A stretch of DNA of 64,000 nt, taken from assembly GCA_965203555.1 (NCBI GenBank), contig CBDBCY010000004.1, positions 1,568,001-1,632,000 on the forward strand. Reading direction: 5' to 3'. The notes under the pieces were generated by a model, which had not been told where the DNA came from, made no database searches, and saw only the letters and a program-made list of their open reading frames with translations. Positions 8,456 to 18,187 of this stretch are shown one piece after another. Source of the DNA: Acidimicrobiia bacterium. GTDB taxonomy: Bacteria; Actinomycetota; Acidimicrobiia; Spongiisociales; ZC4RG35. The number at the start of each line of letters is the position of its first letter. Positions within the stretch are counted from its first letter, which is position 1. The position numbers and the translations under genes were made by a program.

Positions 8456-10534
8456 TCAGCCGATCGTGACCACTCCCGTCAACGCTCCCACGGCTTGCAA
8501 ACCGTCGAGGATGCTCGTGTACGGGAAGTTGAGTTGGTTCGAGTATGCCTCGATCAACGGTGTGTTGAACAGCGTCACGTAAGGCAGATCCTCGGCAATC
8601 ATGGCATCGGCCTGGTGGATCAGATCACGCGCCTCTGCCAGGGTCTTGGCCCGATCGAACTGATCGGCCAACTCGTCGAAGGCGGGATTGGAGTATCCCG
8701 GCGTGTTGAATCCACCCAGGGCGGAGTCGTTCGCGGAGCGGAAGAAGTCGAAAACGTGATCCGGGAACGGAGTGAGTCCCCACCCCAGGATGTAGATGTC
8801 CCAGAGCAGCGGATCGCCCACGAAGACCTTGTCCACGATCACCGAGAACCCGGTGGGTTCGGCATTGAGCGGTATGCCCAGATCGGTGGCCCACTCCTCG
8901 ATGAAGAGCGAGTAGGTGGCCCTCATGGGGTCGTAACCGGGTCCGGGAGCGAGCAGGGTCAGGGGATCGATGGTCTCTCCGCCGGGACCCAGCAGGCCTT
9001 CACCCTTGGGGATCACGTCACGGTTGCCCTCGTCCCAGGCCGGCTCCACCTCCCAGGTCCAGCCGCCGTCCTTGAGGATCTGCACCGCCGATGCGACCCT
9101 CTCCTGTGAACTCTGGCCAGCGCACGGCGCGGTGATATCGGGGTTGTACCAATAGGCGTTGCCGGGTGGGACCAGCGAGTTGATCGAGTAGGCCGTGCCT
9201 CCCAGCACCGTGTTGGCCACGAAGTCCTTGTCGATCATGCAGGCCAGCGCCCGCCGGAAGGAGGCGTCGTTCATCGGGAACTTGCGAGTGTTGTAAGCGA
9301 GATACCTCATACCGTTCTGATCGTTGACCGCCACTTCGAGACTGGGCGCCGCCAGGATCTCGTTGCGCAGACCGGCCTGCAGACCGAGCGGGTTCAGCAG
9401 GAAGTCCACCTCGCCCTCGGTGAGCGCCAGCACCGCGGCGTTCTGATCGGTGTAGATCGAATAGAGACTCTCGGCGATGAACGGACCTTCGGTGTAGTCG
9501 GCAAGGACGTCACCGCCGGGTTCTCCACCCCAGGTTTCGGTGGCGCCGTCCTTGGTGTACTCCACAGCTCCCGAGCTGTAGACCGTGTACTGGCTACCGG
9601 AGTCCCAATAGGAATCGATTGCCACGTTGCGCCAGAATGCGCCCGGTTCCCACTCCGAGGAGTTGAAGGCGGAAGCGTTGGGAGCACCCAGTCCAGAGGC
9701 GGCGTAGAGCGTCTCGAAATCGTCGGACTCGTCGACGATCGGTCCCCAGAAAGCCTCCTGGAAGATGGAAGCCAGACCCACCGACAGCGGCCAGATGGCC
9801 AGCCCCGGCTCAAAGTTGAAGGTGATCTTGACTGTATGGTCGTCAAGGGCCTCCACCGACGAGACGCCCTGGGAGGATTCGTCGTCCTCGGTGTCGGGAT
9901 CGTCGTCACGGGCCAAAGGCCAGATGCTGGGGAAGTTGCCGCCCAGACCGTTGTACTTCTTGATGGTGTTGAAGGTGAACACCGCGTCGTTGGCCGTGAT
10001 GGGGGACCCGTCCGACCAGGTGATACCTGACAGCAGATTCACAGTGACGGAGAAACCGTCTCCGTCAGCCTCGACCTGGGGGGGGCTCGGGTCTGCCGCC
10101 AACACCGGCACCACCGTGTAGGTCGGACCCTGGTAGGTGTAGAGGGAAATCTGACCGGGAATCACATAGGTGTTCCAGATCTCTGCCTCGGTGTCGAGCG
10201 CCGCCCACGGGTTGTCGGTAGTGGGCGCCGAGAAGATACCCAGCCGGTAGGTGGCGCCCATCGGCATCTCCTCAGGTTCATCCATCTCCTCAGGCTCATC
10301 CATCTCCTCAGGCTCATCCATCTCCTCAGGCTCATCCATCTCCTCAGGCTCTTCCATCTCCTCGGGCTCTTCCATCTCCTCTGGAGCAGAGGTGGTTTCC
10401 GGAGCGGGCGCCTCGGTGGTCGCGGGGGCGTCCGTGGAAATGGTCTCGGTATCTTCGGCGCCGTCCCCACAGGCCGCCGCCACCAAAGCCAGTGCTGCCA
10501 TCAGACAAAGCAAACGTAAAGTTGTGGTTCTCAT
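8456..10534 (-). CDS. ABC transporter substrate-binding lipoprotein, family 5 (OppA/DppA-like)
   Basis: Lipobox VAAAC, WSDGSPITANDAVFT motif, first gene of the opp operon. Confidence 0.92.
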   Translation of the reverse strand: MRTTTLRLLCLMAALALVAAACGDGAEDTETISTDAPATTEAPAPETTSAPEEMEEPEEMEEPEEMDEPEEMDEPEEMDEPEEMDEPEEMPMGATYRLGIFSAPTTDNPWAALDTEAEIWNTYVIPGQISLYTYQGPTYTVVPVLAADPSPPQVEADGDGFSVTVNLLSGITWSDGSPITANDAVFTFNTIKKYNGLGGNFPSIWPLARDDDPDTEDDESSQGVSSVEALDDHTVKITFNFEPGLAIWPLSVGLASIFQEAFWGPIVDESDDFETLYAASGLGAPNASAFNSSEWEPGAFWRNVAIDSYWDSGSQYTVYSSGAVEYTKDGATETWGGEPGGDVLADYTEGPFIAESLYSIYTDQNAAVLALTEGEVDFLLNPLGLQAGLRNEILAAPSLEVAVNDQNGMRYLAYNTRKFPMNDASFRRALACMIDKDFVANTVLGGTAYSINSLVPPGNAYWYNPDITAPCAGQSSQERVASAVQILKDGGWTWEVEPAWDEGNRDVIPKGEGLLGPGGETIDPLTLLAPGPGYDPMRATYSLFIEEWATDLGIPLNAEPTGFSVIVDKVFVGDPLLWDIYILGWGLTPFPDHVFDFFRSANDSALGGFNTPGYSNPAFDELADQFDRAKTLAEARDLIHQADAMIAEDLPYVTLFNTPLIEAYSNQLNFPYTSILDGLQAVGALTGVVTIG
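10266..10381 (-). repeat. 18-bp tandem repeat encoding (EPEEMD/E)n acidic linker
   Basis: About 6-7 copies of CATCTCCTCAGGCTCATC on the + strand. Confidence 0.9.
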
Positions 10535-10808: not shown

Positions 10809-10830
10809 AATGCTATCATTGATATCATTG
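10809..10830 (+). promoter_or_regulatory. putative FitA operator
   Basis: AATGCTATCATTGATATCATTG contains TGCTATCA, the Neisseria FitAB half-site, ~40 bp upstream of a fitA-like gene. Confidence 0.5.
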
Positions 10831-10854
10831 TCGCGGATTAGCAAAGGAGAAGAC

Positions 10855-11097
10855 GTGGCCAGCATCACGGTCCGTAATCTCGATGAGAGTCTGGAGCGGC
10901 GACTCCGCATCCGGGCGGCCCAGAACGGGCATTCCATGGAGCAAGAGGCGAGAGAAATCCTAAGCGAGGCGTTGCGGAAACCTCTGACAGGCAAGGATCT
11001 GGTGGATGCAATTCGTTGGACTTTCGAGCCCCTCGGGGGGGTTGAGTTGGAACTGCCACCCCGCGGGCCCATGCGCGAACCGCCCACATTCGACTGA
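10855..11097 (+). CDS. FitA-like ribbon-helix-helix antitoxin, copy 1
   Basis: ASITVRNLDESLERRLRIRAAQNGHSMEQEAREIL; GTG start after AAGGAGA. Confidence 0.85.
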   Translation: MASITVRNLDESLERRLRIRAAQNGHSMEQEAREILSEALRKPLTGKDLVDAIRWTFEPLGGVELELPPRGPMREPPTFD

Positions 11098-11176
11098 GCC
11101 AGGGCACTGATCATCCTCGACACCAATCCGTTCGATCAAGCGGCGCATTGACTCCGATAGAGCAGGGAGAAGCAAT

Positions 11177-11422
11177 ATGGCCACCATCACAGTGCGCAAC
11201 CTGGACGAAGACCTGAAGCGACGACTCCGCATCCGGGCAGCCCGGAACGGCAACTCCATGGAACAGGAAACCCGGAACATTCTGAGAACGGCCCTCTACC
11301 AGGAACCCTTGACGGGTGCAGACTTGGTGAAAGCGATCCGTGCCCGATTCGAGCCCCTCGGCGGCGTTGAACTGGAGTTGCCGTCCCGCGAGCCCATGCG
11401 CGAGCCTCCCACATTCGATTGA
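11177..11422 (+). CDS. FitA-like antitoxin, copy 2
   Basis: MATITVRNLDEDLKRRLRIRAARNGNSME; directly upstream of a PIN toxin. Confidence 0.9.
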   Translation: MATITVRNLDEDLKRRLRIRAARNGNSMEQETRNILRTALYQEPLTGADLVKAIRARFEPLGGVELELPSREPMREPPTFD

Positions 11423-11431
11423 GCCAGGGCA

Positions 11432-11866
11432 ATGATCATCCTCGACACCAATGTCGTATCCGAACTGACGCGTCCCGATCCGGATATCGGCGTTATCGAC
11501 TGGGTCACCCGGCAAGCACCTTCGAACTTGTACGTCTCGTCCATCAGCGAGGCCGAAATGCGTTACGGTGTCGAGATCATGCCAGCAGGCAAGCGCCGTG
11601 ACAGATTGCGCGCCGAGATCAAGGGAATGCTGCGGGAAGACTTTGCGGGGCGCATCCTTCCCTTCGACAGCAACGCCGCTCGATCCTATGCCGCAATAGC
11701 CGCCGACCGCCGCTCTGCCGGACGCCCCATAAACCAGGCCGACTGCCAGATCGCGGCGATCGCCCATTCGCTGGGAGCATGGCTCGCAACCCGAAACACA
11801 ACCGACTTCGCAGGATGCGGCATCGACGTGATCGATCCCTGGTCGGACACCCGGGTCAGGGACTAA
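11432..11866 (+). CDS. FitB/VapC PIN-domain toxin
   Basis: MIILDTNVVSE, ADCQIAAIA, LATRNTTDF, IDPW. Confidence 0.92.
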   Translation: MIILDTNVVSELTRPDPDIGVIDWVTRQAPSNLYVSSISEAEMRYGVEIMPAGKRRDRLRAEIKGMLREDFAGRILPFDSNAARSYAAIAADRRSAGRPINQADCQIAAIAHSLGAWLATRNTTDFAGCGIDVIDPWSDTRVRD

Positions 11867-12054: not shown

Positions 12055-12429
12055 TCAGCCCACGGCGGGAGCGGAAGGTCGGATCTCTCCCAGCAGGGGA
12101 ACAAGCCCCTCGACGGGATCCCGATAATACTTGAGATACTCCTCCGTACCGCGGCGGTGGGAGTAGGCGAGGCGTTCTCGTTCGCTCTCCGGGTAGCCAC
12201 ACTGGGTGATGATGTCATCCAGGGTTGAGGTCAGATAGTTGAATTTCACCCACCGATCCTCCTGCCGGTGATGAACCCAGAAAGTGGGATCATCGACATC
12301 GTAGGGACCAAACTTCTCCAAGTCATCCGCCCACCTGCTCACCAAAATGCGCTCTTCTTCACCGAGTGGGTAGGGAGGGCACTGGTGACCGGTCTCACCG
12401 TGTTTGGAACTGTCCATGGGAACCCACAT
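12055..12429 (-). CDS. hypothetical protein downstream of the Type ISP cassette array
   Basis: 124-aa ORF with protein-like composition, co-oriented with the RM gene; family not recognised. Confidence 0.45.
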   Translation of the reverse strand: MWVPMDSSKHGETGHQCPPYPLGEEERILVSRWADDLEKFGPYDVDDPTFWVHHRQEDRWVKFNYLTSTLDDIITQCGYPESERERLAYSHRRGTEEYLKYYRDPVEGLVPLLGEIRPSAPAVG

Positions 12430-12813
12430 TAATCCGCCGCTCTGGATTCACTCCTCCCCATATCCCTGTTTGGCTATACCCGTTCCCGGGGTACCGCCCT
12501 GCCGGCGGGATCGACGGTGTGGAGGTCGGGCAGCATCCCCGCCGCCAAAGCCGCGAAACGGGTTCGGTTGGAGGGGCTGGCGATCAGGATGGCCGTCTGG
12601 GCAGGCTTCGGGTGGGTCGGCCCGTCACATGCAGGTCGGTCAGCGTCGTGGTCACGAGTGTCGCGAACGGGAGTTGCTGGTCTCTCATGATCAGGATGGC
12701 GGTCGTCTGGGTGCGCATCGGGTCTGCCGCCCGGTGGCGCACAGGTCGAAGAGACGGTCGGTTGCGATGATCCCGAACGGAAGTTGGCGGGTGAGGCTGA
12801 CCAGGATCGCCGA

Positions 12814-12825
12814 CCCCCCCCCCCC
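12814..12825 (-). repeat. poly-G tract 3 (G12), selects among C5/C6/C7
   Basis: C12 on the + strand immediately before cassette 5. Confidence 0.9.
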
Positions 12826-13067
12826 GGTCGGTTACCGGGGCATCACCCGGGTCTGCTGACCCGGTCCCATGGCGTGCAGGTCCGGAATCAGACCGGTCGC
12901 CATCACCCCGAAGATCGCCATGTTCGACGGCCCGGTCATCGCTATCGCCTGCGGGGAATAGCCCGGCTCGGCTGGTTGACTCCGGCGGCGCTGAGGTCCG
13001 GAAGGCAGGTTGTGGCAAGGGATCCGAAGATCGCCCGGTTGTTCGGGGAGGTGACGACGAACGCCGG

Positions 13068-13077
13068 CCCCCCCCCC
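13068..13077 (-). repeat. poly-G tract 2 (G10), selects C3/C4/bypass
   Basis: C10 on the + strand immediately before cassette 3. Confidence 0.9.
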
Positions 13078-13196
13078 GGTTTATCGTGCCAGACTGCGTG
13101 GTATCACCCGCGTCTGCTGCGACCCCTTGATCGCCGCCAGGTCTGGCAGAGTCGTCGCGGCCAACGCCTGAAAGGTCATGTTCGAGGTCCCCGAGA

Positions 13197-16100
13197 TCAG
13201 GATCGCCGACGGGGTATGACCCGGCAGGCTTGTGATATTCCTCCCCCTTTGAGATCGCAGATCCGAGCGGTGGCGAGGACTGAGAAGATGGTGGAGTTCG
13301 ATCCCGTGGAGACGAGAATTCCCCGAGCCCCCCCCCCCGCTTCCCTATTTGTGCTTTCCTCGCGTGGGAACATCTTGGAAACGGTCTTCACAGACGAGAG
13401 GATGCGGTCATCCTCATACAGCCACAGTTTGGTGAACGGGCGATAGAGCACCTCCCTAACGCGAGATTCGTCAAATATGATCTCCTTGTTCGCTTTCAGG
13501 GCCTGCTTCAAGGTGGCGGTCCATTTGATGGTTTTGAGATTGTCGTTCCTAGTGGCTTGCCGGAAGGTGATTTCACCCTCCTCAACAAAGAACCGCATAT
13601 CTTCATACTCGTCAATGAGCGCCTTGATTCTGGCAATCAGATCGTCCCGAGAAAACGAATACACGTAAGTATCGCAATTGGTTTTCACGCCCGATGCGTG
13701 CTCCGCAACAGCACTACGCTCCTGCTTGTTCGTGGAACAGACCGGCAGCAGCTTCTCAAAGGTACCGTCGGTCAGGTTCACCCAGTCGTGGCGATCGTTG
13801 ACCGGCACCGTCTCGAACTGATCGCTGGTCACGTCCCCCAGTTCCGCCAGCCAGGCGAACTTCTGATCCAAGGTGGAGTATTCGGGTACTTCCGCGTAGC
13901 GGAGAGCGCCGGAGCCGGTCAGGCCCTCCCGTGGATTGCGGACCAGGACGGTGATCTGCACGCCGTTGCGCGATCCCCCACCGAACAGTTTGTCACCCTC
14001 TCGACGAAACTCCTCACCGCTCTTGTAAGCGTCCCCCCGCAGGTTGACCACATAGAGGTCGGTGAATTCGTCGCGTAACGCGGCCCGCATGCCCGCCAGG
14101 GCGGTACCCGTAGCGAGGGAATTGGGATGGATGAACGCCAACACCCCCCCCCCCCGCGGCGCGTCTGGAGTCGCCCAGTCGGTCCGAGGCCCACCGGAAC
14201 GACTTCACATACATATTGCCCGCCGCGTTGCCGCCCGGGGCGCGTCCGGTGACTTCCTTGTGCCGTCTTCCGTAGGTGTCTCTGACCCGTTGTTCGACGT
14301 CCTCATGGACGATGTTCGGGTTGTCGTCCCCGGCAGACTTCTGCCCGGCCGACCAGGGAGGATTCGCCGCTATCACCCGGATGTCCCGCTCGTCCTGGGA
14401 GACCGCCCGTCGAGGGTTCCGGTCCAGGCCGAGCCTTCCCGTCACCGCTCCGGCCAGCGTGTCCCGCAGAACTATGCCCTCGAACGGACGATACCCATCC
14501 TCGAACACTCCGCGAGAGGCGGCGGCCTGCTCGATCTTGAGAGCGGCGATGTAGTAGGCCAGCAGCACCAGATCGTTGGCGTGCAGTTCCTGTTCGTATT
14601 TGCGGACCGCGTCCCGGTCGGATATGAGCGGTTCCCCGTCGGTGTCCGCCAGGGTCAGCAATCTGGAGATGAAAGTGCCGGTCCCGGTGAAGGGATCGAG
14701 TATCTCCACGGCCGGTTCGCTCAGGGAGTAGCCGAAGTGCTTCCGGCACACCGCCTGGGCGCTGCGGAGCATGAAGTCCACCAGGGGAATCGGGGTGTAG
14801 ACGATGCCCAGACGCGCCACCACCTCGGGAACCGCCGATTTGAAGAACCCCTCGTACACGTCCTGGAGGACCTGCAGCTTGGAGGCGACGGGATCGGCGT
14901 CCTCGGAGACATCCTCGAACACCCTGGCAATGCGGTCGTAGGAGCGCTGCAGGGGCTCGATCAGATGATCGAAGTCGAGCCCGGCGTCCCTCAACTCCTC
15001 CATCACCGCGTTGAGGTGTTGGGAAACCGGATTCCGGTCAGCGAAGAGGTGCTCGGCGAAGAAGGCGTCGAACACCGGGATGGTGACCGCATGCTGGGCG
15101 ATCATCTCGGCAGCCTCGGCGCGGCTGAAGGTGGGTATGACGGTTTCTCGGATCTGTTCGGCGAAGGTGTCCAGGGCTTCCGCCGCCCGCCCGTGGCCGG
15201 TTTTGCTCCGAATCTCCGAAAGCACCTTCCGGTAGACCCCGGCGGCCCGGTTGCCCCAGGACGCCCAGTAGTGCCGGTCGCCCACCTGTTCCACCAGCAC
15301 CGACGCTATCTTCGGCAACAGATCGATCTCGGGAAGAGTCGGCTGGTCAGGTTTTCCGGCTGAGGGGTCGTCACCGGTCTTGTCGATGATTCGCAACGGC
15401 GCCTTCTCGGCCAGGCCGGGAGCGTTGACCAAGGCGTCGAAACGCTCGTCGTGGGCGCGGAGTGCCCGGCAGACCCTCCACACCTGTTGGAATGCGGAAC
15501 TTTTCAGAAACTCCTCGGATTGGAGGGTTTCCCCGTCGGGCACCAAAACCGGCACCACGATATAGCCCCTCTGCTTGCCGGGAGCGCGTCTCATCACCCG
15601 CCCCACCGCCTGCACGATATCGATCTCCGACTGACGGGGCGCCAGAAACAGCACGGCGTCCAAGGCCGGGATGTCCACCCCCTCGGAGAGGCAACGGGCG
15701 TTGGTCAGCACCCGGATGGTGCCGGGCGGCTGATCGGCGCCCTTCAACCATCCCACCCGTTCCGACCGCACATAGGCGTTCTGCTTGCCGTCGATGTGTT
15801 CCACGTCCAAGGCCAGCACCGCTCGATTCCGATAATCCTTGGAACGGTCCTGCTGATAGCTGTCGCACAGCCGGCGCCAGTGCTCGGCGACCTTCTTGGA
15901 GTTGACGATCTTGTTGGTGAAAGCGATCGCTCTGCGGCAGTGGTAGTCGGGGTTGAGCATCCCGGCGGCCCGGTCTCTTTCCACCCCCAACGTGGTGGGA
16001 TCGGCCAGGGCGTCCCAGCACCCCACCAACTGCACCCAGTCCTCGGCGTTGAGAATCTGCGACCGGGGCACTTTGCCGGTGGTCTCCCCGTACTGTTTCT

Positions 16101-17361
16101 GGTAATTCTCATAGCTTTCTATGGCATGCTGCTCGCGGTAGGCGATCACCACCACCTGGTAGTCCGACAGCAACTCCGCCTCGATGGCGTCATAGAAACT
16201 CTGCTCGTAGAGAAGCGGCCCATAGAGGAACTCGTCGTCCATGGAATACACCTCCCGCCCTGACCTCCTCCAACCCGCCGCGTAGATCCGCTGGGTGGCG
16301 GTCATGAACAGGCGCCTCCGAGCGTCGAGGCGAGCGGGGTTGTGCACCAGTTGGAAGGGACTCTCCTTTTCTTTGGACCGTTCCACGCCGGTGGTGCGGT
16401 GGGCCTCGTCGCAGATCACCAGATCGAACTCGGGCACGCCCAGGTACTGAGCGTCGCAGACCACCGGCAGCGACTGGTAGGTGGAAAAGACCACGGTCAT
16501 CGCCTCCGGCGCCTCCCGTTTGAGCTTGGAGGCGATCCTCTCGGCGCTGGTGGTGGGTGGCATGGCCAGTTCCATCAGATCGGCGTCCTCGGAGTCCCGG
16601 CCCGACCGGGCGTCCGAGCAGACCGCCAGGTAACGGTGCGGAATCTCCGGATCGCCCTGATATGCCCAGGTCCGCATGGTCTGGCTCATCAGGGCGATGG
16701 AGGGAACCAGATAGAGCACCCGGCCACCCAGACCCACGTTGCGCTCCGCCGCCCACAATCCCACCTCCGACTTTCCCGACCCGCAGGGCATGAGCACCCT
16801 CCCCCGGCTGGAGGGGTGCGAGCCGAACAACCCGTTGCCGATCGCATCCAGCGCTTCTTCCTGGTGCGGGCGGGGAATGTGACGTTCCTCGCCCCAGCGC
16901 AGAGTCTGATCGGGGCGTTCGATAAGATTTCGCCAGTCCCCCACCGGCCAGTTGTCGAGATCGTTCTTGGTGATGATCTGGGTGGAGGCGTCGTTGAGTT
17001 TCTTGCGGGCATTGGCGGAATAGTTGCCGGTGGCCACAAAGATGCGCTCCTCCCACACATCCGCCACCGTGTTGGACAGGAACTTGTTCACCTCGGTGAT
17101 ACTGACCGAACCCGACTTGTAGAACTTGCACTGAATGGCGCACAGCCCGCCCTCTTTCAGTTCACCCACCAGGTCGATGCCGATATCGCCGCCGCCCCGG
17201 CCGGGCCACTCCGACCACAGCCACAGTTTGTCGAAGCGATCCCGGTACTGCGGATTGACCAGGAGGGCTTTGCGGATCAGCTTCTCGAAGGCCCGACCTC
17301 GCTGATACCTCCCGGTGTGATCGGCTCGCAGGCGATCCAGCGCTTCGGCGAGATGCGGCAT
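13197..17361 (-). CDS. Type ISP restriction-modification enzyme (LlaGI/LlaBIII-like: Mrr nuclease, SF2 helicase, N6-MTase, partial TRD); frameshifted at poly-G, probably phase variable
   Basis: FEKL..DIGIDLV..AIQCKFY nuclease; PCGSGKS and DEAH helicase; LGIVYTP, DPFTGTG and NPPW MTase; GVKTNCD, LYRPFTK TRD start. About 1387 aa if the tract is G11. Confidence 0.92.
13328..13338 (-). repeat. poly-G tract 1 (G11), selects C1/C2/bypass
   Basis: C11 on the + strand immediately before cassette 1. Confidence 0.9.
14144..14155 (-). repeat. poly-G ON/OFF tract (G12, OFF) inside the Type ISP methyltransferase domain
   Basis: C12 on the + strand at the junction of ORFs 14014-17361 and 13197-14144; G11 joins them in frame. 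Confidence 0.9.
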
Positions 17362-17452
17362 CAGACTCTTTCTATCAAGTTCTGGCTACTGTCGAATACA
17401 TTGAACACAAGGGTACAATGAGAAGACCGTCCGCATATTTCTCCCGTAGCCC

Positions 17453-18187
17453 ATGTCCGTTCCCCCCGGCACGCTCATCGAACTGCCTCCCGAGCAGCAC
17501 GACCGCGACAACATCACCGACTGGTGCCTTGACCAATTCCGGGACCACTATGGAGACGGGGCCATCACCAAGGACGACATCTGGGAGTATCTGTACGGGG
17601 TGATGCACGCCCCCGACTGGCGGGAGCGATACCGGCACGACCTGCAGCGCAACCTGCCGCGGGTGCCGTTCGCTCCCGACTTCGAGGCATTCGCCGCGGC
17701 GGGCCGTCACCTCATGGATCTGCACATCAACTACGAGACCGTCCCCGAATGGCCGCTTACCTGCCTGGTGGACGATCAGCCCGACGAGGGCGGTTCCGAT
17801 CCCGACGCCTACCGGATCACTCAGAGGAAGATGAGGTGGGGGAAAGACGCAGCCACCAGGACCGCGGACCGCAGCGTGTTCATCATCAACGACCGGTGCC
17901 GGCTGGTGGGCATACCACCCGAAGCCCACGAATACACGGTTTCGGGACGTTCACCGCTGGAATGGGCCATCGACAGCCTGCGCTGGAAACACAACAAGGC
18001 GTCGGGGATAACCGACGATCCCAACGGCTGGCATGCCTGGGCGGACGAGCCGTTCAACCTGATCCGCCACCTCCGCCGCCTCGTCCACATCTCGATCCAC
18101 ACCGCCCGAACCGTGAAGTCCCTGCCGCCTTCGCTGGCGGAACCACAGTCCCCGGGCTCGGCAGACAACCCAACCCCCGAACACTGA
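17453..18187 (+). CDS. stand-alone C-terminal part of the Type ISP specificity domain
   Basis: DNITDWCLDQFR..ITKDDIWEYLYGVMHAPDWRERY..DLQRNLPRVP..LMDLHINYE..GIPPEAHEYTVSGRSPLEW..SGITDDPN: the region that follows the variable segment in single-chain Type ISP enzymes. Confidence 0.88.
   Translation: MSVPPGTLIELPPEQHDRDNITDWCLDQFRDHYGDGAITKDDIWEYLYGVMHAPDWRERYRHDLQRNLPRVPFAPDFEAFAAAGRHLMDLHINYETVPEWPLTCLVDDQPDEGGSDPDAYRITQRKMRWGKDAATRTADRSVFIINDRCRLVGIPPEAHEYTVSGRSPLEWAIDSLRWKHNKASGITDDPNGWHAWADEPFNLIRHLRRLVHISIHTARTVKSLPPSLAEPQSPGSADNPTPEH

Follow-up and report, generated by a model that had tools for sequence, protein, structure and literature searches.

The 64-kb stretch of contig CBDBCY010000004.1 analysed here (64,000 nucleotides, positions 1,568,001 to 1,632,000 of the Acidimicrobiia bacterium assembly GCA_965203555.1; in the following, the window) contains a large restriction-modification gene that ends in an array of seven short cassettes, with a small gene divergent from it. 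The locus is probably a phase-variable system, in which slippage at repeats acts on a split restriction-modification enzyme of Type ISP and the reading frame sets its specificity among up to seven states, besides an off state. The central observation is an asymmetry of stop codons. In 32 arrays from the window and related genomes, the out-of-frame stretches which such a frame selection has to cross hold 1 stop in 6630 codons, with 122.7 expected, whereas the out-of-frame stretches that are not needed hold 216 in 5518, with 190.9 expected.

According to the mechanism proposed, four poly-G tracts would change their length by slipped-strand mispairing. Tract 0, located in the methylase, would turn the gene on and off, and each of tracts 1 and 2 would lead in its three frames to the first cassette of its group, to the second one after out-of-frame reading of the first, or beyond both cassettes to the following tract. 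The three frames of tract 3 would lead to cassettes C5, C6 and C7, and the large subunit would end in one of seven alternative cassettes of about 40 residues. Stretches crossed out of frame would be translated as polar, probably disordered tethers, and the constant C-terminal half of the target recognition domain (TRD) would be supplied in trans by the small gene. Such switching would be heritable and reversible, and each cassette would confer a distinct recognition sequence on the enzyme, also in those forms in which a long tether precedes it.

Architecture of the large gene and its cassette array

The first part of the large gene (14156..17361, minus strand) comprises, according to Pfam and the list of open reading frames (ORFs), an Mrr-type nuclease, a superfamily 2 (SF2) helicase-like ATPase, the ISP coupler and the start of a putative N6-adenine methylase. 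In the corresponding ORF (17361..14014, minus strand), Pfam matched Mrr_cat_2 at residues 36-147 (1.9e-22), ResIII (2.9e-14), Helicase_C (3.7e-07) and ISP_coupler (1.3e-22), and the match to N6_Mtase is weak (0.002; 18.0 bits, under the cut-off of 20.4). Within the methylase, the run scan located tract 0, a G12 at 14144..14155 (minus strand, running from 14155 to 14144). The second part of the large gene (13339..14143, minus strand) contains the methylase end and the constant N-terminal half of the TRD; the part after tract 0 aligns with the methylase-TRD unit of LlaGI (1.4e-29) as well as with LlaBIII and DrdV. Likewise, the ORF 14144..13197 (minus strand) matches Type_ISP_C over the initial part of the profile (positions 5-150 of 342, E 5.5e-23). 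No family was assigned to the TRD parts by an NCBIfam scan.

The cassette array forms the tail of the large gene and occupies 13322..12477 of the minus strand, with seven cassettes of about 40 codons each. These are grouped as 2 + 2 + 3 behind tracts 1, 2 and 3, each successor lying in the -1 frame of its predecessor. Reading frames are numbered here such that frame k has its codon starts at 14200-k-3n on the minus strand. Tract 1 (G11, 13328..13338) is followed by C1 (13200..13322, frame 2, 41 codons) and C2 (13084..13206, frame 1, 41 codons), tract 2 (G10, 13068..13077) by C3 (12945..13064, frame 2, 40 codons) and C4 (12835..12948, frame 1, 38 codons), and tract 3 (G12, 12814..12825) by C5 (12694..12810, frame 1, 39 codons), C6 (12587..12700, frame 0, 38 codons) and C7 (12477..12593, frame 2, 39 codons), the last cassette. 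The stop of C1 (13199-13197) falls within the start of C2, and in the same manner every cassette has its stop in the first codons of its successor. Tracing of the frames revealed that, for each of tracts 1-3, every frame leads to the stop of a distinct in-frame cassette or on to the next tract. Of the three frames behind tract 1, one arrives at the C1 stop, one at the C2 stop, and the third continues beyond tract 2; the frames of tract 2 arrive at C3, at C4 or pass through, and those of tract 3 arrive at C5, C6 or C7. Elsewhere in the window, no homopolymer run is longer than 8. Tandem Repeats Finder reported nothing relevant at the array because the cassettes are too diverged.

Stop codons in the alternative frames of the window

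In the array region, frame 0 has its only stop at 12586. Frame 1 contains stops at 13083, 12834, 12693, 12687, 12654, 12642, 12627 and 12450, and frame 2 at 13199, 13178, 13106, 12944, 12938, 12905, 12890, 12845 and 12476. The nine off-frame segments needed for frame selection, i.e., both off-frames of C1, C3 and C5 and the -1 frame of C2, C4 and C6, are free of stops over 357 codons, as an earlier note on this DNA had reported, and the unneeded +1 frames of C2, C4 and C6 do contain the 3, 5 and 5 stops given there. C7 needs no off-frame and has 1 stop in +1 and 0 in -1. The complete lack of NTG codons in C1 and C3 was reproduced as well (0 in each, with 7 in C2, 9 in C4, 2 in C5, 7 in C6 and 4 in C7), and the cassette starts read as described: ATC CTG ATC after the first alanine codon in C2, C6 and C7, GCG ATA GCG in C4 and ATC CTG GTC in C5.

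Given the encoded peptides, the exact probability that all needed frames are open, obtained by dynamic programming, is a suggestive 4.6e-5 with the codon usage of the genome and 8.7e-5 with that of the gene itself. For the individual cassettes, the probability of openness amounts to 0.031 (C1), 0.044 (C3), 0.113 (C5), 0.57 (C2), 0.73 (C4) and 0.72 (C6). Resampling of synonymous codons, a check proposed together with the earlier note, yielded no stop-free case among 5000 resamples, with a mean of 7.30 stops in the needed frames. In the unneeded frames, 14 stops in 195 codons were counted against an expected mean of 10.03 (P(>=14)=0.035), which is near expectation. Hence, the depletion concerns the needed frames, and the unneeded frames behave normally. 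As background, about 1000 long genes of the source genome feature 0.032 stops per codon in +1 and 0.014 in -1, and both off-frames are open in just 15.6% of 11617 windows of 41 codons taken from this genome.

The earlier statement that codon choice keeps the frames open holds in so far as the needed frames are depleted of stops given their peptides. In part, however, the avoidance takes place at the level of the amino acids and not of the codons. Under no codon choice are C2 and C4 open in +1 (P=0.000), whereas the first cassette of each group can be.

Replication in related genomes

Nine of 61 genomes searched matched, including the source genome; seven of the eight others belong to the same genus and one to another family. 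Six loci from these relatives all carry the same array (6/6), and each tract frame again leads to a cassette end. A scan of one genome per species extended the set to 33 loci. Their records name Acidimicrobiia of several families, one Caldilineaceae and one Thermoanaerobaculia, which we take to be three phyla. The arrays comprise 3-7 cassettes in all 33 species loci. Among 62 G/C tracts within or before the arrays, all three frames end at a cassette stop in 37, two in 17 and one in 8, with no tract having none.

For the stop count, the needed frames were defined solely from the order of the cassettes, the cassette frame and the spacing or position of the repeats. The count covered 32 arrays, with L026 and L052 left out for masked letters, and the expectation was derived from synonymous resampling. 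In the needed +1 frames, 1 stop was observed in 2164 codons, with 60.0 expected, and the needed -1 frames revealed 0 stops in 4466 codons, with 62.7 expected. The unneeded +1 frames contained 196 stops in 3910 codons (162.5 expected) and the unneeded -1 frames 20 in 1608 (28.4 expected). The asymmetry first noticed in the window is thus replicated in other genomes, and with these included the openness of the needed frames greatly exceeds what chance would give. The flanking protein is just 50-81% identical among the loci, so there was ample opportunity for stops to arise.

The assembled genes are found in different states. In 28 of 33, the gene ends at the stop of a cassette detected by hidden Markov model (HMM), which is cassette 1 in 12 genes, cassette 2 in 4, cassette 3 in 3, cassette 4 in 5, cassette 5 in 3 and cassette 7 in 1. 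Thereby, 16 of the 33 assembled frames first cross 1-6 cassettes out of frame and then end exactly at the stop of the in-frame cassette; the 1682-aa open frame of L024 crosses six cassettes and ends in the seventh. The other five genes show cassette-like tails by eye in three cases, masked letters in one and an end elsewhere in one. Open frames of at least 1390 aa were found in 25 of the 33 assembled genes.

Two variations of the arrangement were observed among these loci. In four genomes of the same genus (G008, G015, G009 and G007; loci L017-L020), tract 1 is located centrally within a C1-type cassette, at the position occupied by three glycine codons in C1 of the window; as judged from these sequences, the repeat has changed its place with respect to the cassette in the course of evolution. 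The short third frame in these genomes does not lead to a dead end, since it represents the tail of the C1-type cassette; in groups with a single cassette, the +1 frame contains 2-3 stops. Moreover, L052 has very long tract clusters between its cassettes (G22, C15, G17, C11, G12), and L026 four tracts within 90 nt together with masked letters, which may represent hyper-expanded switch regions or assembly trouble.

Identity and conservation of the cassettes

A profile of the constant tail and the first cassette aligns through the cassette to residues 1178-1215 of the LlaGI chain, 1335-1362 of LlaBIII and 777-809 of DrdV. For the TRD of DrdV, the base-contacting residues described are N673, R721, Y764, D803 and K807 (bioRxiv 10.1101/2021.01.06.425610), and in the profile alignment D803 and K807 map into the loop just past the conserved D-L of the cassette. 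The recognition elements described for the LlaGI TRD include Loop VI (1365-1374), onto which a beta-hairpin (1347-1358) packs (PMC4872093). Using the offset of about 164 between chain and full-length numbering derived from the present alignments, both the hairpin and Loop VI fall inside the cassette. By homology, each cassette is thus predicted to be a different version of the TRD core beta-hairpin together with the recognition Loop VI.

Average linkage sorted 167 cassettes into nine major types, which differ mainly in the loops of the hairpin and Loop VI; it was used instead of single linkage, which chained 164 of the 167 into one group. The cassette types are conserved across distant genomes. 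Moreover, each type occurs once per array, with 26 members in 26 arrays, 22 in 22 for three types, 8 in 8 for two, 9 in 9 and 6 in 6, and two exceptions having 33 members in 32 arrays and 22 in 21.

A comparison of orthologous arrays yielded 44/29/114 changes at the first, second and third codon position of the cassettes' own frame, and another such comparison 39/31/73. This bias towards the third position of the own frame places all seven cassettes under purifying selection in that frame. The notion of triple-frame coding, as raised in the earlier note, therefore does not apply in the sense of three functional peptides: apart from the changes piling up at own-frame third positions, the off-frame peptides are poorly conserved, with an identity of 0.41-0.62 versus 0.72-0.87 for the own-frame peptides in the first orthologue pair. 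In addition, the off-frame peptides are polar, having a hydrophobic fraction of 0.19-0.21 versus 0.44. This composition would suit flexible, probably disordered tethers. Such stretches would be translated and must then be stop-free, and the off-frames are kept open solely as spacers.

Split recognition domain and small subunit

Type ISP enzymes combine all their activities in a single polypeptide, which differs from the arrangement here. The TRD is split after the cassette, and its C-terminal half forms an ORF of its own. Type_ISP_C is divided accordingly, with positions 5-150 in the large gene and 165-341 (1.5e-49) in the small gene, which is located at 17453..18187 of the plus strand, encodes 244 aa and is divergent from the large gene. 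The intergenic region of 91 bp between them (17362..17452) is the presumed site of both promoters. The small protein aligns to residues 824-1026 of DrdV and 1403-1573 of LlaBIII, which correspond to the core end and the guide subdomain of the solved enzymes. A frame-selected cassette leaves nothing downstream in a fixed frame, and for this reason the constant remainder of the TRD is a separate gene whose product would join in trans.

Stand-alone relatives of the small protein form 486 clusters of 134-427 aa, the best 120 of the 486 measuring 198-287 aa. In the 33 loci, the small gene lies upstream in two arrangements, on the same strand in 15 (G056 among the genomes with this arrangement) and divergently in 8, or downstream on the same strand in 9; in one of the 33 (L032) it was not found. 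Where the small gene is downstream, its start overlaps the stop of the last cassette (ATGA or GTGA) in 6 of 9 loci. That one TRD half came to lie on the opposite strand by an inversion, or by an error of assembly, was considered and rejected, as there are no inverted repeats at 12440 or 17450 and the small gene is separate wherever it was found in the related loci.

Prediction of a complex between the cassette-bearing half and the small protein reached a score of 0.86, with 0.00 for the best of 3 controls. The predicted interface includes the cassette residues 159-199; the runs share at least 19% of contacts, and the predicted local distance difference test (pLDDT) value of the partner is at least 76. 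In the calibration of this procedure, the mark was reached by 58 of the 80 complexes with a solved structure and by 2 of the 110 mismatched pairs. Still, the pass may just reflect likeness to the solved single-chain relatives.

Repeats and tract lengths

In 20 loci, cassette 1 is preceded by a G/C tract, and the 12 others examined feature (GA)n in 7, (CA)n in 2, (CT)n in 2 and a 7-nt unit in 1; L026 was left out of this survey. Overall, the arrays use poly-G, poly-C, (GA)n, (CA)n, (CT)n and the 7-nt unit, no unit being a multiple of three, and in genome G056 a poly-C takes the place of the poly-G of the window. These varied non-triplet units speak for slippage and frameshift and against a protein-binding site or a coded poly-glycine. 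In the source genome, the lengths of G/C runs are distributed bimodally. Runs of 7, 8 and 9 occur 161, 10 and 1 times, and runs of 10, 11, 12 and 13 occur 4, 6, 4 and 4 times. The long tracts are therefore a separate class, and four of the 18 tracts of 10-13 in the genome are located in this gene.

Tract lengths differ between assemblies of the locus. Over 12508-14400, a contig from sequencing run X9 of the same organism has 0 base differences from the window and, as its sole indel, one G fewer at tract 3; a contig of the same organism from run X11 has the same shorter tract 3. In a further same-organism contig (run X10), tract 0 is one G shorter and thereby has the 'on' length. These same-organism contigs show 0 other differences from the window over up to 1.9 kb. 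In run X1, a strain which is 95-99% alike, tract 0 is two Gs shorter. The comparison excludes contigs ending at tracts as well as those parts of the stretch that lack coverage in X10, X11 and X1. We regard these differences as a hint of length change and not as a measurement.

Besides, further repeat-associated genes were observed in the source genome outside the window. On contig C4 (1049000-1055000, L054), a gene for an Eco57I-like methylase has a C10 where two open frames meet and, near its end, an (AG)18. After (AG)18, a similar short motif is present in all three frames, two of which stop soon after; this may represent a second case of a frame-selected ending, here in a different class of enzyme. 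Likewise, other G/C tracts of 11-13 on the same contig, at 393304, 1430061 and 3137411 (L057, L058 and L059) are located in open frames with an MmeI-like N6 methylase, DUF499 and an SLH domain. Control by repeats seems to extend to a set of genes in this genome, among them several defence genes.

Alternative explanations

Several points weigh against phase variation by frame selection. The hypothesis was formed on the same data from which the probabilities for the window were calculated, and the cassettes are paralogues; these probabilities alone therefore overstate the case and are suggestive only, and it is the replication in other genomes that carries weight. The arrays are in turn related to one another, and the codon usage of the source genome was applied to all genomes. 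A lone exception was found in L048, where a stop in a needed frame cuts off the fifth cassette. With regard to the tracts, the length differences rest on contigs of four runs at a depth of 2-7 instead of raw reads, and homopolymer length is the commonest sequencing or assembly error. The assembled state of the window is itself off, as the gene is out of frame at tract 0 with its G12; a G11 would fuse both parts. Moreover, 8 of the 33 assembled genes have shorter open frames (173-1133 aa) and are thus off or broken upstream. Finally, none of the cassettes has a known methylation motif or a known enzyme activity, the enzyme would need to tolerate tethers of 40-208 junk residues, and a switch to a new specificity would expose the unmethylated sites of the host to self-restriction.

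The last point would be sidestepped if slippage occurred in expression, by RNA polymerase or ribosome, on the same architecture, each cell then containing a mixture of isoforms with several specificities at once. Stop-free needed frames and a split TRD would be equally required in this case, and long repeats can slip during expression; frame-dependent leaky expression was described from frameshifted (AG)n Type III mod constructs (10.64898/2026.04.01.715767, preprint). Nevertheless, tract lengths differ in the DNA, both between contigs of the same organism and between species, and the assembled genomes are found in many different frames, which argues for a variation that is at least partly heritable. 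Nothing speaks for heterogeneity at the RNA level, 0 of the 11 listed runs that hold the stretch being RNA on record. Slippage in expression in place of slippage in the DNA is therefore considered unlikely, though both may coexist.

The two remaining explanations leave the open frames without a present role, and both are contradicted by the evidence. In a silent donor array, cassettes would be transferred by recombination or gene conversion into one expressed copy, with openness being incidental. The cassettes do share short direct repeats (16-49 nt, 73-94% identity), and their number varies by species from 3 to 7, so that recombination has both gained and lost cassettes over time. However, all copies lie head to tail directly behind the gene, each with its own stop, and there is no separate expression site. 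The longest inverted pairs (17-29 nt at 70-94%) are away from the module borders, and a recombinase family was detected in 0 of the 10 neighbouring ORFs scanned. A donor array would need neither 6630 codons of stop-free off-frames nor six kinds of non-triplet repeat at the same spot, and it is accordingly regarded as highly improbable. The preference of the earlier note for selected read-through over such an array is thereby supported, and all comparative evidence fits it. Even less credible is the view that the gene is broken and the array, left over from tandem duplications, is in decay and has no present function. The frameshift at tract 0 in the window and the occurrence of the TRD in two pieces on opposite strands, inversion-like at first sight, would fit such decay. 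It is opposed by the presence of split and array in 33 of 33 loci named to three phyla, by the 486 clusters of stand-alone small subunits, by the own-frame third-position bias in every cassette and the conserved cassette types, and by the open frames of at least 1390 aa in 25 of 33 assembled genes. Phase variation by frame selection remains the explanation preferred here.

Relation to known systems and significance

Phase-variable hsdS genes of Type I systems, known as invertons or shufflons, hold several recognition modules per locus, one of which is expressed, and depend on inverted repeats and a recombinase. Type III mod genes and the Type IIG gene cj0031 of Campylobacter are switched on and off in a binary manner when a repeat within the coding sequence, in cj0031 a poly-G tract, changes its length and thereby shifts the frame. 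The present locus resembles the hsdS systems in having alternative recognition modules at one locus that would be expressed singly, here chosen by reading frame. Unlike in invertons and shufflons, inverted repeats flanking the modules and a nearby recombinase were not found in the array and the 10 neighbouring ORFs. Tract 0 would behave like the repeats of mod and cj0031, whereas tracts 1-3 would instead choose among products.

The nearest precedent among the literature found is the two-state Type IIG switch of Helicobacter pylori. For JHP1272 (Hpy99XIV) and HP1353-HP1354 (HpyAXVI), two homopolymers were described, of which the first acts as an on/off switch; through the second, a small TRD-like domain is added, and recognition is thereby altered at two base positions (PMC3936762). 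As in this description, the present locus combines restriction and methylation in one gene, the first homopolymer would switch it on and off and the others would pick the C-terminal recognition segment, with a change of recognition being predicted here. The segment is likewise a short beta-strand module with recognition residues in turns. In contrast, the H. pylori switch as described has two states, the added C-terminal copy displacing the resident one, and its enzyme belongs to the MmeI family, is without a translocase and has an unsplit TRD, whereas the locus studied here encodes a Type ISP enzyme with ATPase and split TRD. Furthermore, up to seven mutually exclusive cassettes would be available here, each with its own stop, by three nested three-way choices in which the upstream cassettes are read out of frame.

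With LlaGI and LlaBIII, the enzyme shares the domain order of Mrr nuclease, SF2 ATPase, coupler, N6-adenine methylase (putative in the present case) and TRD (PMC4872093; PDB 5ffj, 4xqk). LlaGI has a single copy of the cassette motif, located at the hairpin and Loop VI. Both enzymes, as described, are single polypeptides that contain the segment in one fixed copy and lack repeats; in the present locus, the split of the gene lies behind the segment, which is multiplied and would be selected by frame. The literature searched yielded no paper on either a phase-variable enzyme of Type ISP or an array of frame-selected cassettes, and the alignment of 552 Type ISP sequences in PMC4872093 may include split forms.

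Should the proposed mechanism be true, repeat-driven phase variation of restriction systems would go beyond switches that are binary or have two states and include a many-way choice that depends on the reading frame alone, and its setting would be uncultured high-GC symbionts and not host-adapted pathogens. We lean towards an even broader reading, that of a frame-addressed multiplexer. In this device, nested three-frame repeats would route translation to up to seven conserved loop modules from a pool of at least nine types, the gene split would place the module at the C-terminus and each type would be a fixed piece of recognition code, giving seven specificities and an off state with no recombinase. 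It would have spread among symbionts of three phyla using six kinds of repeat. Gene fission would gain a reason, as a frame-selected module must be C-terminal. With the natural library of interchangeable Loop VI modules, moreover, direct tests of the recognition code of Type ISP and Type IIL enzymes could become possible; PMC4872093 calls this problem unaccomplished. For annotation, it is of importance that such genes will look like frameshifted pseudogenes with junk downstream.

Neighbouring genes and downstream region

The X9 and X1 contigs diverge from the window at 12508, inside C7, and continue into a variant C7 tail that is absent from the assembly; the region behind the array may be an insertion differing between strains. 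An ORF of 124 aa at 12055..12429 was considered as a part of the system and rejected (0 matches in the 39 related loci searched; 11 other genome copies). At 10810-11866 of the window, two genes encode FitA-like antitoxins of 95 and 81 aa, with a PIN-domain gene following the second, and the region beyond the small subunit features an AAA/DUF4143 gene, an AlbA_2/HATPase_c_4 gene and a DUF222-HNH gene. The enzyme thus sits amid toxin-antitoxin and defence-like genes. Further along, at 8456-10534 (minus strand), a solute-binding protein is encoded, which has N-terminal PEEM(E/D)E repeats after its signal sequence.

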